From an uncultured Candidatus Rokubacteria bacterium (lineage in GTDB: Bacteria; Methylomirabilota; Methylomirabilia; Rokubacteriales; DASRDR01): DNA of 64,000 bases. Positions 17,024-27,889 of the stretch are shown here, one piece after another (within the stretch, counting starts at the first letter, position 1; every line of letters begins with the position of its first letter). Where the stretch lies: contig CAWEXD010000008.1 of NCBI GenBank assembly GCA_963812945.1, positions 256,172-320,171 of the forward strand, given 5' to 3'. The notes under the pieces were generated by a model. The model had not been told where the DNA came from, did no database searches, and was given only the letters and a program-made list of their open reading frames with translations. The position numbers and the translations under genes are program-made.

Positions 17024-17027
<4 letters not shown>
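15504..17027 (-). CDS. FAD-dependent pyridine nucleotide-disulfide oxidoreductase, mercuric-reductase/dihydrolipoamide-dehydrogenase-like
   Basis: ~507 aa. It has YNLVVVGAGTAG, the redox-active disulfide GGDCLNTGCVPSK, a second NAD fold LAVVGGGPIGCE and a C-terminal HPYPTQGE dimerisation motif. The start is called at the GTG that overlaps the upstream stop (GTGA). The ORF-track N-terminal extension overlaps the radical SAM gene and was rejected. Confidence 0.8.
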
Positions 17028-18001
<974 letters not shown>

Positions 18002-18136
18002 GCTCTCGAGAAGCCGGAGCTGGGCCGCGGGCACGGCGAGCGGAGCGCCGCGCGCGCGGAGACCCCGGGTCCCCTTCGGACCCCCAGCCGGGCTCGCGAG
18101 CTCGGGGTCGACGGCGGCCGGTCCCGGCACGAGCAC

Positions 18137-18472
18137 CTACATCATTCCCGCGTGCCGCGCGTGCTCGAGCATCTGCACGCCGTGAACCATCGACGCTCCG
18201 CCCCGGATGGCCGCGGCCACGTGGACGGCTTCCGTCATCTGCTCGAGGTCGGCGCCCTTCTCGAGACACGTCTTCGTGTACGCGTCGATGCAGTACGGGC
18301 ACTGGACGGCGTGCGCGACGCCGAGCGCGATCAGCGCCTTCTCCCGCTCGCCGAGCGCACCCTCGGCGAAGACCGCGTTGTACCAGGCGAAGAACTTCTC
18401 GGCGAGGTCCGGGTTGCCCTGGGCGATGTTCCCGAACTTCCCGAGGTGCTCCGGCGCGTAGTAGGTCTCCAT
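18137..18472 (-). CDS. carboxymuconolactone decarboxylase family (AhpD-like) protein
   Basis: 111 aa with an AhpD-fold CxxC motif (HAVQCPYCIDAYT). It is the first gene of the five-gene operon. Confidence 0.8.
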   Translation of the reverse strand: METYYAPEHLGKFGNIAQGNPDLAEKFFAWYNAVFAEGALGEREKALIALGVAHAVQCPYCIDAYTKTCLEKGADLEQMTEAVHVAAAIRGGASMVHGVQMLEHARHAGMM

Positions 18473-21591: not shown

Positions 21592-21634
21592 CCCCGTCCC
21601 TCAGTCACGGCTCGAGGGGATCCCGAGGAGACCA

Positions 21635-22525
21635 ATGGAGTCCGCGGACGACGTTCGAGCGAGCCTGGGCGTGGCCTCGCTCGCCGACCTTCACCGGCAC
21701 GAGGCGACGTCGCCGGACGGCGAGTCTCGGGTCGCGGCGCTTCTCGGAGATGCGCGCGTCCTGTCGTGGCCGCTGGTCGTCGACGCGGCGTCCGGGCTCA
21801 TCCTCGACGGCAGCCACCGGGCGGTGGTCCTCGCCCGGGATCTCGGCGCGCGCTTCGCTCTGGTCCAGCGGGTCGCGCTCGACGCGCCCGACGTCCGTAT
21901 CGGGACCTGGTGCCTGGTCCTCGAGGGCGTGTCCGCGGCGGCCTTCGACCACGCGCGGCGGGCGCTGGGACTGGAGGTCGACGCGCCCGACGGGCTCCGC
22001 TGTCACTACGGGGGCCGCGTCTACGCCCGGCCGGGGTCCGGCGCCGGGGAAGCACCCGGCCTGGCCGAGGGGCTCGAGCGGCTGCTCTCGTCGAACGGCC
22101 ATCGGCCGCGCGCACGCCTCGTCGAGGACGAAGCGGCGACATCGTGGCTCGCCGCATCCGAGGTGGTCGTGCTGCGCCCGCCGGCGCTGGACAAGGCGGC
22201 CGTGCGGCAGCGAGCGGGGGGCGCGCTCCTGCCGCCCAAGTCGACTCGCTTCCTCCTCCCGTACCGTGTGTTCGGGCTCCACGTTCCGCTCGCGGCGCTC
22301 GGCGGGCGGCGGCGGGCGCTGATCGATGTCCTGGAGCGCGAGCGGGAGCGGCCGCTCGCGTGTCTCGGCCCCGGGCTCGTCATCGACCGCCGCTACCCCG
22401 AGCGCCTCTGGCAGTTCACCGACCATCGCATCCCCGACCGGCTCTTCGCCGACGAGGCGGGGCGCCGCGCATACACGGACGCGCTCGCGCGGGTCGCCCT
22501 CCCGGCCCCGTCGCGGCAAGGCTAA
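21635..22525 (+). CDS. hypothetical protein with a putative ParB/Srx-like N-terminal domain
   Basis: 296 aa. A GAGGAG ribosome-binding site precedes the ATG at 21635. The motif [17 protein letters not shown] resembles the ParB/sulfiredoxin DGxHR phosphotransfer motif. It sits directly upstream of the TrpB2 gene, 10 nt away. Confidence 0.45.
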
Positions 22526-22535
22526 GGAGGTCCCC

Positions 22536-23900
22536 GTGGCCCAGACCAAGTTCGTGCTCGACGAGAAGGATCTCCCGAGCCGCTGGTACAACATCCAGGC
22601 GGACCTGCCGGCGCCGCTCCCGCCGGTGATCCACCCGGGCACGCTCCAGCCGATCGGGCCCCAGGATCTCGCCCCCCTGTTTCCGATGGAGATCATCAAG
22701 CAGGAGGTGAGCCAGGAGCGCTGGATCGACATCCCGGAGCCGGTCCGCGACGTGTACCGCCTCTGGCGACCGACGCCGCTCTACCGCGCCCACCGCCTGG
22801 AGAAGGCGCTCGATACGCCGGCCCGGATCTACTACAAGTGGGAGGGCGTCTCGCCGGCCGGCAGCCACAAGCCGAACACGGCGGTCGCCCAGGCCTACTA
22901 CAACCGGGAGGAGGGCGTCCGCCGCATCGCGACCGAGACGGGCGCCGGGCAGTGGGGCTCGGCGCTCTCCTTCGCGTGCCAGCTCTTCGGGATCGAGTGC
23001 AAGGTCTACATGGTGCGTGTCTCCTACGACCAGAAGCCCTACCGGCGCATCATGATGGAGGCCTGGGGCGGCACGGTCGTGGCGAGCCCGTCGCGGGACA
23101 CTGCGGCGGGACGCGCGGTGCTGGAGAAAGACCCGCAGTCGCCCGGGAGCCTCGGCATCGCGATCTCGGAGGCGGTCGAGGACGCGGCCCAGCGCGAGGA
23201 CACGAAGTACTCGCTCGGCTCGGTGCTGAACCACGTCCTGACCCACCAGACCGTGATCGGGCTCGAGGCGCAGCGCCAGCTCGAGATGGCCGGCGACCGC
23301 CCGGACATCCTCGTGGGCTGCATCGGAGGCGGCTCGAACTTCGGCGGCTTCACGTTCCCGTTCCTCCAGGACAAGCTCAGCGGGAAGCGGAAGGACCTCC
23401 GCGTCATCGCCGTCGAGCCCCAGGCGGCGCCCAGCCTCACGCGGGGCGAGTACGTCTACGACTTCGGCGACACCGGGCAGATGACGCCCTTGGTCAAGAT
23501 GTACACGCTCGGCCACTCGTTCATCCCGGCGCCGATCCACGCCGGCGGGCTCCGGTACCACGGCATGGCGCCCATCGTGTGCGCGCTCTACGACGCGAAG
23601 GTGATCGAGGCGGTGGCCGTTCACCAGAACCCGACCTTCGAGGCGGCGCTGACCTTCGCCCGCGCGGAGGGCGTGCTGCCGGCGCCCGAGGCTGCCCACG
23701 CGATCCGGACCGTCATCGACGAGGCGCTCCGCTGCAAGGCCTCGGGGGAGCGGAAGGTCATCGCCTTCAACCTGTGCGGTCACGGTCACTTCGACCTCTC
23801 GGCCTACGAGCGCTACATGGCCGGCAAGCTCGAGGACTTCGAGTACCCCGCGGAGAAGGTGAAGGCCGCGCTGGCCGGCCTTCCCAAGGTCAAGGTCTGA
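22536..23900 (+). CDS. trpB: TrpB-like pyridoxal-phosphate-dependent enzyme (TrpB2 type tryptophan synthase beta paralog)
   Basis: 454 aa. A GTG start follows an AAGGAGG site. The PLP lysine is in [12 protein letters not shown]. TrpB2-specific N-terminal extension and insertion motifs are present. Confidence 0.85.
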
Positions 23901-26408: not shown

Positions 26409-27596
26409 TCAGGCCGTCGGCGGGCCGGAAGCCGGCCGGCGCGGACCGCCGCGCCATCGCCGCCGGCGCCGCCGGTGGCTCGGAGCGGGAACGGGAGCGG
26501 GGGCGGACGACGGCACCCGGTTGCCGTCGATCTCGGGGATCTGCCGGCCCCTCTGGGGCTGCCGATTGCCGTCGATTTCCGACACGTCGAGCTCGTCGTC
26601 GGGGCCGCCGAGGTCGTCCGGCTGGCGATCGCCCTCCGCGACCGGGTCCGTTGCGGCATTCTCGGTTGCGGCAGTTCCGATCGACGGCTCGTTCCCCGGT
26701 GTCTTGCCTTCCTCGGCGAGCGTGATCACGCCCGACGGGCTCACCACGATCTCGCGAATCCGGCGCAGCCGGGTGACCAGGCGGGGGGAGCCGGGCGGGC
26801 GCTGGAACCCTCGCTCCTTGAGCGCATTGGCCACCGCGTCGATGATCACGGTTCGCCGGGGTGAGGCCTCGACCAGCCCGCGCACCACCGAGACCAGCTC
26901 GTCGTGAGGCGCGGTGTGCGGCGTGTCCGGGGACGGGGTCCGTGGCGCATGGGGCGCCGGCCCGCGTCCCCGCCCCCCACCCGGCCGGCCGGCGGGCGCG
27001 CTCGTCGCGGCCGGATGACGGGAGACGTCCCTCGGCTCGGTGTGCCGGGGGGCGTGGGCCCCCGGCGCGGCGTGAGGGGTGCTCGGTCCCCGTCCCCGGC
27101 GGCGGCGCCGGCGGCGCGCGCTCGACGGGTCGGCCGCCGGCGCCCGCTCCGCCACGACGGGCGCCTCGGCCGCCTCCTCCTTGACGAGGCGGCGGTAGGA
27201 CAGGCGCTGGAACGCGATCCCCAAGCTGGCGGCCACGTCCCCGACAGCGTCGAACGCCCGGTCGTCCGACACGATGTCGATGAGATCGCCGGGGCGCGCG
27301 GAGGCGAGCCAGATGCCCGCGGCGACCGCGATGCGCAGGTCGCTCCAGTCGCGGACGCCCGTGGAGGGGGCGCTGTGGACCAGATGCGCGCCACGCTGCG
27401 CGAGCAACCGCGCCGCCTCGTGACCGACCACCCGCCAGTTGGCGACGGCCACGAGCTCGGTCCGGCGGTCCCAGGGATCGACACCGAGATGGTCGATGAC
27501 GTGCGCGAGATGCTGCGCCCGGCTGGTGTTCTCGACGTCCAGGAAGATCGCGCGCCGGCCGGGGGGGCGCGGCCTCTCCGGCTCGGGAGGCGGCAT
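26409..27596 (-). CDS. NYN (LabA/DUF88, PIN-like) domain protein with a C-terminal OST-HTH/LOTUS domain
   Basis: It has IFLDVENTS and the rest of an NYN core, a low-complexity Arg/Pro linker, and then a LOTUS-like segment (TVIIDAVANALKERG, ITLAEEG). The acidic tail carries two EIDGNR units. The start could be as far upstream as ~27800. Confidence 0.65.
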   Translation of the reverse strand: MPPPEPERPRPPGRRAIFLDVENTSRAQHLAHVIDHLGVDPWDRRTELVAVANWRVVGHEAARLLAQRGAHLVHSAPSTGVRDWSDLRIAVAAGIWLASARPGDLIDIVSDDRAFDAVGDVAASLGIAFQRLSYRRLVKEEAAEAPVVAERAPAADPSSARRRRRRRGRGPSTPHAAPGAHAPRHTEPRDVSRHPAATSAPAGRPGGGRGRGPAPHAPRTPSPDTPHTAPHDELVSVVRGLVEASPRRTVIIDAVANALKERGFQRPPGSPRLVTRLRRIREIVVSPSGVITLAEEGKTPGNEPSIGTAATENAATDPVAEGDRQPDDLGGPDDELDVSEIDGNRQPQRGRQIPEIDGNRVPSSAPAPVPAPSHRRRRRRWRGGPRRPASGPPTA

Positions 27597-27889
27597 GCGC
27601 CCGGCGAAGGTCGTCTCGACGGCGGAGAGGGGGAGGTCGAGCGGTTCGGGCTCGGGGATGGCGACGACTGGCTCGGGCGCGGGCTCTTCGACGGGCGCGC
27701 GACGGACCCGGTCCGCCGGCTTTCTGCGGGGTTTCGATCCCGACGCCGAACGGGAGGCGCTTCCTCGCGCCTTCCTGCGGCTGCCGTCGCGGTTCGAGCT
27801 GATCGTCACGTTCGCCCCACAGTGTAACGCAAGACGGCCGGTTCCGGTGCCCGCCTGCGGACCCGGACCCGGCTGGTATACTCCCGCTC

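Follow-up and report, generated by a model that had tools for sequence, protein, structure and literature searches.

Does the gene that directly precedes a TrpB2 gene supply this enzyme with its amino acid substrate? The question is raised by a two-gene locus in a 64,000-nucleotide (nt) stretch of DNA with 72% G+C (the window) on contig CAWEXD010000008.1 of an uncultured Candidatus Rokubacteria bacterium, where a gene for a protein of 296 amino acids (aa) with a motif of the ParB/sulfiredoxin (Srx) type is followed by a gene for TrpB2 of the tryptophan synthase beta family. By predicted fold and profile comparison, the 296-aa protein as a whole belongs with the free serine kinases of the SerK/SbnI superfamily, in which it would represent a long subfamily with a C-terminal extension, and proteins of this kind were found next to TrpB2 in no fewer than three divergent lineages, in either of two gene orders. 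It is probable, from the sequences and the model, that the kinase-like enzyme makes O-phosphoserine from serine and that TrpB2 condenses O-phosphoserine with indole to tryptophan. This route had been proposed in an earlier note made from the sequence of the window (the original prediction), and both fold and synteny were shown to support it, with the two activities themselves predicted.

The two genes and their translation signals are arranged as follows.

21625..21630, plus strand: Shine-Dalgarno-like GAGGAG, 4 nt 5′ of the ATG of the kinase-like gene, read from the sequence
21635..22525, plus strand: kinase-like gene, 296 aa, with ATG at 21635 and TAA at 22523-22525
22524..22535, plus strand: AAGGAGG Shine-Dalgarno sequence overlapping the TAA of the kinase-like gene, plus spacer
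22536..23900, plus strand: TrpB2 gene, 454 aa, with GTG start at 22536

The spacer between the genes (22526-22535) is 10 nt long and opens with GGAGG (22526-22530). Direct reading of the sequence bore out the original prediction both in the 296-aa open reading frame (ORF) with a DGSHR motif ending 10 nt before the TrpB2 gene and in the ribosome-binding sites claimed for the two genes, Shine-Dalgarno sites being present at both. From the spacing alone, we infer that the two genes are co-transcribed. Scans for consensus promoters and terminators gave no match, which says little at 72% G+C, and nothing was found by Rfam and tRNA scans.

The coding strand of the first gene was established by comparison with orthologs. 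On the plus frame, the G+C fraction at codon positions 1/2/3 was 0.83/0.54/0.90, substitutions relative to 8 orthologs numbered 286/364/878 at the same positions, and the ratio of nonsynonymous to synonymous substitution rates (dN/dS) was 0.23-0.31, which shows purifying selection on this frame. Codon-position G+C, the excess of substitutions at position 3 and dN/dS thus identify the plus strand as the coding strand of the kinase-like gene, and the N-terminus MES(A)DDVR of its product is kept in homologs. A simple gene caller based on G+C at third codon positions (GC3) favoured an antisense ORF of 375 aa (21605..22732, minus strand) that spans the entire kinase-like gene plus the start of TrpB2; the caller was misled by the high GC3, and the distribution of substitutions over codon positions showed this ORF to be a non-coding shadow ORF.

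Scored by its sequence, the second gene is securely identified as TrpB2. Its product reached 749.4 bits with NF009057 (cutoff 366) and 673.8 bits with TIGR01415 (cutoff 518.85), as against 145 bits with the TrpB1 model TIGR00263 (cutoff 392). Among solved structures, the three TrpB2 paralogs of Sulfolobus solfataricus are closest (6hul_B, 468 bits; 4qys and 6hte, 374 bits), whereas TrpB1 structures score approximately 80-140 bits. Four sites define the enzyme further.

22869..22871, plus strand: K112, the lysine in GSHKPN that binds pyridoxal 5′-phosphate (PLP), from alignment to TrpB structures
22935..22937, plus strand: E134 in TETGAGQWG, equivalent of the TrpB1 catalytic glutamate, from alignment
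23376..23393, plus strand: L281-K286, an insertion of six residues relative to PfTrpB1, between its positions 243 and 244, from alignment to PfTrpB 7rnp
23553..23555, plus strand: R340 in GGLRYHG, a candidate phosphate-binding residue at the position of the TrpB1 aspartate (GLDYPGVGP)

The GSHKPN motif was found in 13 of the 14 Methylomirabilota loci described below, the TrpB2 of the remaining locus (L014) being cut by a contig end. The TrpB1 glutamate to which E134 corresponds is E104 in Pf and E109 in St numbering. The insertion L281-K286 faces the gap between Pf K243 and K244, as is characteristic of non-operon TrpB2; an insertion of 2-6 residues has been found only in non-operon TrpB2_o and TrpB2_a and was tied to lost communication with TrpA (Merkl 2007, PMC1854888). 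At the position of R340, arginine is present in 6hul, 4qys and 6hte and aspartate in LBCA-TrpB and PfTrpB, and the GGLRYHG motif was detected in every sampled TrpB2 whose sequence covers the region. The TrpB1 aspartate contacts the hydroxyl group of serine, and the specificity of TrpB2 and TrpB1 for O-phosphoserine or serine has reportedly been assigned to one residue, which we take to be the one at the R340 position. Cysteine synthases that use O-phosphoserine likewise recognise it by a positive residue at the leaving-group site (PMC5120207). TrpB2 enzymes are treated as O-phosphoserine-dependent and as having high affinity for indole in PMC11917138 (citing Busch 2014 and Hettwer & Sterner 2002). 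The window TrpB2, which would then use the same two substrates, shows nothing unusual as an enzyme.

The 296-aa protein was more difficult to place. Searches with the single sequence were uninformative: no Pfam family matched at E ≤ 1, the NCBIfam SerK model NF053625 gave 13.1 bits (E 0.038; equivalog cutoff 380 bits), the SbnI model NF033589 (cutoff 350 bits) gave no match at E ≤ 1, and phmmer against the PDB returned noise only. The protein is outside both curated families, because the SerK and SbnI equivalog cutoffs both failed, and its kinship to SerK and SbnI is visible solely by means of the family profile and structure prediction. In public data, 92 homolog clusters of the protein were found, all nameless and without Pfam domains, and the public annotation of relatives and partners is "hypothetical protein" or "ParB-like Spo0J". 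A profile built from an alignment of 36 of these 92 clusters (profile A1) and searched against the PDB matched SerK (1vk1, E 1.5e-7; 5x0b, E 3e-7, with residues 22-241 of 242 spanned) and Staphylococcus SbnI (E 2e-5 to 1e-4; 5uje, E 2e-5).

An AlphaFold2 model from A1 had a predicted local distance difference test score of 91.9 and a predicted template modelling (TM) score of 0.87. When the model was compared with the PDB by Foldseek, the nine best matches were exclusively SbnI and SerK, with E-values of 4.5e-14 to 5.4e-11 and whole-target coverage. SbnI (6nr6, 5uje, and 5ujd) matched at E 4.5e-14 to 2.1e-13 with TM-scores on the target of 0.69-0.77, and SerK (5x0k, 5x0b, 5x0g, 1vk1, 5x0e, and 5x0j) at E 3.5e-13 to 5.4e-11 over 234-237 columns with TM-scores on the target of 0.66-0.70. 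The model thus has the two-domain fold of SerK, a ParB/Srx-type N-domain with an alpha/beta C-domain. The tenth match had an E-value of 0.028, and from this match onward the superposition is confined to the N-terminal 75-85 residues (ParB, Noc, Atu1540, and sulfiredoxin); the sulfiredoxin match 6ky4 covered 77 columns at E 0.15. The ParB/Srx type that had been read from the DGSHR motif was accordingly recovered in the N-domain, the strong PDB matches of the whole model being SbnI and SerK only.

Three other assignments were rejected. A canonical ParB would not fit, as there was no Pfam (PF02195) or TIGR00180 match, 75-85 residues superpose at E ≥ 0.03, and the motif is DGSHR, not the GERR of the CTP-binding motif GERRxR. 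Sulfiredoxin is a single small domain with a catalytic cysteine in a GCHR motif, whereas the 296-aa protein has Ser60 at the cysteine position (DGSHR) and two further regions. DUF1015, the proposed SerBK, gave no Pfam match at E ≤ 1.

An exhaustive hidden Markov model (HMM) search detected 1129 representative relatives, 337 of them at E ≤ 1e-10 and mostly 260-300 aa long, and the kin of the 296-aa protein form a sizeable unannotated subfamily. A second homolog search with the superfamily alignment (40 sequences, 22-72% identity) mostly recovered the close family again. One relative, P0077 (421 aa, encoded on a contig of 220 kb), has about 120 aa more and is matched by the profile in two separate regions; an insertion, a duplication or an artefact of assembly could account for the extra length.

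The residues that carry catalysis in the characterised kinases have counterparts in the 296-aa protein, which in addition has a module of its own.

21698..21703, plus strand: H22-E23, with E23 aligned to SerK E30 and to the SbnI glutamate (LHE), from HMM alignments
21806..21820, plus strand: D58-G-S-H-R62, the ParB/Srx-type nucleotide-binding motif, aligned to SerK D69-G-H-H-R73 and SbnI D-G-V-H-R
22232..22252, plus strand: P200-P-K-S-T-R-F206, the C-domain motif, aligned to SerK S-P-K-T-T-R-H and SbnI G-V-T-R-F
22307..22522, plus strand: C-terminal extension, residues 225-296 (~70 aa), from the secondary structure of the model
22385-22402, plus strand: D251-R252-x-Y254-x-E256 within the C-terminal extension, with R252, Y254 and E256 at least 90% conserved across the superfamily

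E23 and D58-R62 correspond to the catalytic glutamate and the D-G-H-H-R motif of SerK, except that the second histidine of DGHHR is replaced by serine; SerK E30 is the residue changed in the mutants E30A and E30Q, of which crystal structures exist. E23 shows no variation in A1 and is conserved to at least 90% in the superfamily, D58, G59, H61 and R62 are invariant or nearly so, and P200, K202 and R205 hardly vary within the superfamily. The fold of SbnI is present in the model, and its glutamate (LHE) and aspartate (DGVHR) align with E23 and D58; E20 and D58 of SbnI are reportedly required for kinase activity. SerK and SbnI are without the C-terminal extension, and their alignments stop near residue 222. 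The last residue of the C-domain motif is Phe (TRF) in the window family, an intermediate clade and SbnI, and His (TRH) in SerK, in most archaeal relatives and in the two metagenomic classes described below (A and B). That the window protein shares TRF with SbnI as against the TRH of SerK is only a weak hint, from sequence, at the phosphate donor.

In reference genomes, the close kinase-like family was found in Candidatus Methylomirabilota/Rokubacteria only, in 14 loci (L001-L014) with 41-78% identity, and TrpB2 is located directly 3′ of the kinase-like gene in 14 of 14. One of these TrpB2 copies is cut by a contig end (L014) and one has an apparent frameshift (L010). In 12 orthologous loci the gap between the genes is 11-26 nt, and AAGGAGG-N5-GTG is present in 11 of them, the exception being L011 with GGAG and an ATG start for TrpB2. 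L013 and L014 keep the pair with entirely different genes upstream and a kinase-like protein that is only 41-43% identical. Variable insertions were detected between TrpB2 and the next gene in L001-L012, never within the pair.

Three further observations concern these loci. The TrpB2 ortholog of L010 (L010:6918-8280) was obtained in two tblastn segments, with a split at about 7694 that indicates a frameshift, either a sequencing error or a pseudogene. Among the collinear L001-L012, TrpB2 is separated from the acyl-CoA dehydrogenase gene by as little as about 30 nt and as much as about 2.2 kb, which suggests a local insertion hotspot 3′ of TrpB2. The rates of evolution of the two coupled genes differ widely: compared to the window, TrpB2 of L001-L010 and L012 is 93-97% identical with dN/dS of approximately 0.07-0.08, and the kinase-like gene product is 72-78% identical with dN/dS of 0.23-0.31.

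The pair was also found outside Methylomirabilota. A metagenome scan with a profile of the intermediate clade (P0093-P0103) did not recover this clade, only distant relatives, at 80 loci. In 20 of the 80, TrpB2 (54-63% identical to that of the window) is located immediately 5′ of the kinase-like gene on the same strand, which is the opposite of the window order, with gaps of -26 to +17 nt where the start of the partner could be placed. Across all partner-linked copies, TrpB2 is 54-96% identical. The 20 loci fell into two classes, both with low-G+C hosts (43-58%). Class A (5 loci) encodes a partner of ~220 aa with full-length homology to the window family (hhalign 98.6%, E 1e-15, 212 columns) in an archaeal context with TIP49 and DUF981; in one of these loci (L046; 2020-5621) a seryl-tRNA synthetase gene is directly 5′ of TrpB2, giving the order seryl-tRNA synthetase, TrpB2, kinase-like gene. 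Class B (15 loci, at least three context types) encodes a partner of 212-230 aa that keeps HE, DGMHR and KPRSTRH, is much reduced in its middle region and ends in a helical tail; neither neighbour Pfams nor cluster names gave a taxonomic placement. The SerK and SbnI NCBIfam models were the best matches of classes A and B, well below cutoff, the SerK model giving 50 bits for class A and 42 bits for class B compared to 63 bits for a Thermofilaceae relative. No other trp genes were found near the pair in any of the three lineages, and no serA, serC or pgm was found beside TrpB2-linked copies. The synteny on which the original prediction depended was therefore seen both in 14 of 14 Methylomirabilota loci and, in reversed order, in 20 loci of two other lineages, and the pairing has been kept or assembled in each of them.

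A gene of 166-194 aa that is conserved among class B loci is transcribed divergently from the pair (L081:2989-3489(-), L075:2974-3507(-), L097:1352-1858(-), and the corresponding position of other class B loci). It had no Pfam family besides weak helix-turn-helix (HTH) matches in L097 and may, from its sequence and position, be a dedicated regulator.

The more distant kinase-like relatives in reference genomes are mostly archaeal (Thermofilaceae, Micrarchaeota, and Bathyarchaeota). In L023:665-2902 the kinase-like gene is followed by a seryl-tRNA synthetase gene. The adjacency to seryl-tRNA synthetase in two unrelated contexts (L046 and L023) links these proteins to the free serine pool. In archaeal loci without TrpB2 (L015:5902-9647, L016, L029:2442-5775, L030, L032, L034, L040:242-3767, and L043), a same-strand cluster was found in the order kinase-like gene, gene for a 378-506-aa protein, then a gene of ~425-439 aa. 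The middle protein had no Pfam or NCBIfam match in the four that were scanned, and in the three scanned the product of the third gene was a cofactor-independent phosphoglycerate mutase of the ApgM type that passed the apgM subfamily cutoff. Assignment of these mutase-like neighbours to the proposed homoserine kinase HomK (TIGR02535) was rejected at 235-266 bits against a cutoff of 446 bits, and the idea of a phosphoserine:homoserine phosphotransferase was not adopted. The archaeal cluster may, judged from its gene content, serve serine-to-phosphoglycerate assimilation, and the seryl-tRNA synthetase and ApgM-type neighbours fit serine/phosphoserine metabolism.

In the mechanism that we propose, the two genes would form a translationally coupled operon. 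The ParB/Srx-type N-domain of the kinase-like protein would bind nucleotide and its C-domain would close over serine, and free L-serine would be phosphorylated to O-phospho-L-serine. From this TrpB2 would form the PLP-aminoacrylate with phosphate as the leaving group, probably held by Arg340, and the PLP-aminoacrylate would react with free indole to give tryptophan. Translational coupling would provide matched amounts of the two enzymes. TrpB2 would thereby be supplied with a substrate of its own and would not depend on the small pool of O-phosphoserine in the SerA/SerC/SerB pathway, much as SbnA is supplied by SbnI, at the cost of one nucleotide phosphate per tryptophan, and the most plausible use of the module would be indole scavenging. 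Candidate phosphate donors are adenosine diphosphate (ADP), adenosine triphosphate (ATP) and cytidine triphosphate (CTP), and ATP is reportedly used by SbnI. SerK uses ADP (Makino 2016), and one SerK-like protein bound CTP (PMC12704722).

Several findings weigh against this mechanism. The 296-aa protein is just 16-22% identical to SerK and SbnI (16-18% for SbnI), it scores 13 bits with the SerK model as against a cutoff of 380 and gives no match with the SbnI model, and its C-terminal module of ~70 aa is absent from the characterised kinases. With regard to synteny, 12 of the 14 Methylomirabilota loci (L001-L012) are collinear over >10 kb, the whole neighbourhood included, and they count as roughly one observation because the flanking genes are collinear too. 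For class B, homology is established for the N-domain only (97.5%, E 7e-12, 80 columns). Five TrpB2 loci from Chloroflexota, Acidobacteriota and unassigned genomes (TrpB2 76-79% identical) have no kinase-like ORF within 4 kb, so TrpB2 in general needs no such partner, and the association, judged from these sequences, is lineage-specific and not universal for TrpB2. A 284-aa protein 3′ of TrpB2 in locus L104 was considered as a possible partner and rejected, as it had no HMM match. Finally, ordinary serine synthesis already passes through O-phosphoserine, and a dedicated kinase is not obviously required.

The low identity to characterised serine kinases (16-22%) and the TRF motif where SerK has TRH would also agree with a pair that is metabolically coupled by another chemistry, in which threonine, homoserine or D-serine is phosphorylated, or in which a nucleophile other than indole leads to a different beta-substituted amino acid; TrpB-family enzymes are promiscuous toward nucleophiles. 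The physiological role of TrpB2 has, moreover, long been uncertain (PMC1854888). Still, we regard such a chemistry as unlikely, since SbnI, a proven serine kinase, also has TRF, a neighbouring seryl-tRNA synthetase gene in two contexts speaks for serine, and the window TrpB2 keeps the catalytic glutamate and resembles an ordinary member of a family characterised as O-phosphoserine-dependent tryptophan synthase. Distinctly unlikely is a kinase-like protein that acts chiefly as a regulator of trpB2, either SbnI-like or of another ParB-fold type that binds DNA or switches with nucleotide. The Pfam scan showed no HTH or other DNA-binding domain, the catalytic glutamate and PK(S/T)TR are kept throughout the superfamily although a pure regulator would have no need of them, and translational coupling would lead to roughly equal protein amounts, which is unusual for a regulator. 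The ParB fold of the N-domain does fit such a role, as does the name of SbnI in the PDB and NCBIfam, [quoted passage not shown], and ParB-fold proteins are often nucleotide-dependent switches (PMC12704722), but class B loci contain a likelier regulator in the divergent gene with weak HTH matches.

Serine kinases have been proposed to be bidirectional, although the reverse reaction is thermodynamically unfavourable (both GapMind 2026 preprint), and SerK supports serine assimilation to 3-phosphoglycerate (PMC5120207). The kinase-like enzyme might then run toward serine or act catabolically, in a SerBK-like manner or in assimilation of the SerK type, with the adjacency reflecting shared regulation of the serine pool without hand-over. 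The archaeal relatives that adjoin ApgM-type phosphoglycerate mutases point in this direction, but no serA, serC or pgm accompanies any TrpB2-linked copy and the partner that recurs in three lineages is an enzyme reported to use O-phosphoserine, and we consider this direction very unlikely. Adjacency without functional meaning, from inherited gene order plus chance, appears most improbable: it would account for the collinearity of L001-L012 over the whole neighbourhood and for the TrpB2 genes without partner in five other genomes, but the pair persists in L013 and L014 in a different upstream context, it is reversed in two other lineages with at least four further contexts, and insertions fall between TrpB2 and the next gene, never inside the pair. 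The preferred reading thus remains the supply of O-phosphoserine to TrpB2 by the kinase-like protein. It might go as far as a physical association, in which the kinase-like protein replaces TrpA as a partner subunit and hands O-phosphoserine directly to the PLP site, perhaps docked by its C-terminal module or by the class B helical tail. We hold this form rather unlikely; if true, it would explain the lost TrpA binding of non-operon TrpB2 and the coupling across bacteria and archaea in either order.

Among known systems, the nearest is SbnI-SbnA of Staphylococcus aureus (staphyloferrin B), likewise a ParB-fold serine kinase with a fold-type II PLP enzyme (PF00291) that consumes O-phosphoserine; that SbnI feeds O-phosphoserine to SbnA is stated in PMC12704722 (citing Verstraete 2018). 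SbnI is the best structural match of the 296-aa protein (E 4.5e-14), and the two have the catalytic glutamate, DGxHR and TRF in common. The consumer in the window is instead TrpB2, and the product would be tryptophan, whereas that of SbnA is a diaminopropionate precursor; the 296-aa protein differs from SbnI also in its extra conserved C-terminal module of ~70 aa and in having no siderophore genes nearby. SbnI has regulatory and heme-binding roles as well. SerK (Thermococcus kodakarensis TK0378; 5x0b and 1vk1; Pyrococcus/Thermococcus) has the same two-domain fold, and its E30, D69-R73 and PKTTR have counterparts in the 296-aa protein. It is without the C-terminal module, feeds cysteine synthesis and serine assimilation, occurs solitary or beside serA-like and aminotransferase genes (PMC5120207), and has never been reported to adjoin trpB2. 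No clear-cut bacterial SerK homologs were reported (Makino 2016). Compared to the TrpB2 structures 4qys, 6hul and 6hte, the window enzyme is a full member by curated score, arginine position and non-operon loop, and the novelty is its conserved partner. In TrpA-TrpB, a TrpB-family gene is likewise translationally coupled to the gene for a substrate-making enzyme, but the partner here is predicted to supply O-phosphoserine, not indole, and is unrelated to TrpA.

A previous neighbourhood analysis found no conserved trpB2 context beyond trp operons (Merkl 2007, PMC1854888). Among the papers available to our literature search, none names both TrpB2 and SerK or a serine kinase, and neither a 2025 ParB-fold survey nor the GapMind 2026 preprint links TrpB2 with a serine kinase. 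The original prediction had called such a pair previously undescribed in bacteria, which is too broad, SbnI-SbnA being already a bacterial pair of kinase and consumer; the part that holds is the pairing with TrpB2, which appears undescribed. New here, as it appears, are the subfamily of free-serine-kinase-like proteins and its recurrent pairing with TrpB2.

In the window, the pair has upstream neighbours that encode a flavin adenine dinucleotide-dependent oxidoreductase, ArsS with a peroxidase-like partner, a flavoenzyme of the old yellow enzyme type and a YbgF-like tetratricopeptide repeat protein, and downstream neighbours that encode an acyl-CoA dehydrogenase, a thiolase-domain protein and a TIGR02117 protein. 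None of these is connected with tryptophan or serine metabolism. The neighbours annotated between 15.5 and 29.1 kb of the window did not include any trp genes; no sbn (siderophore) genes were detected among the window neighbours, and no second TrpB or second kinase-like gene in the window. The kinase-like gene and TrpB2 are a self-contained unit. Among the neighbours, the arsenosugar pair (17027-18472, minus strand) consists of the radical S-adenosylmethionine protein ArsS (TIGR04167, 409 bits) and an AhpD-family peroxidase-like partner (TIGR04169, 178 bits), and is collinear in related Rokubacteria genomes. An ORF with an NYN-like region and no NCBIfam match is located 2.5 kb 3′ of the pair (26412-27698, minus strand), and in a control genome (L106, 5374-6135) an NYN/PIN7 protein is encoded directly 3′ of TrpB2, which is probably a coincidence.

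TrpB2 has been puzzling since the early 2000s as a widespread enzyme, encoded mostly outside trp operons, with poor or no binding of TrpA. Its preference for O-phosphoserine has been shown in vitro, and we know of no earlier genomic clue tying it to a source of O-phosphoserine. If read correctly, the module is a compact one of two genes, taking serine, a nucleotide and indole to tryptophan, is directly testable in vitro, and could serve the biocatalytic synthesis of tryptophan analogues without TrpA. The relatives described here would extend the SerK/SbnI family to an uncultured bacterial phylum that is abundant in soil, as well as to other uncultured lineages, and the pairing would provide independent genomic support for O-phosphoserine as the physiological substrate of TrpB2.

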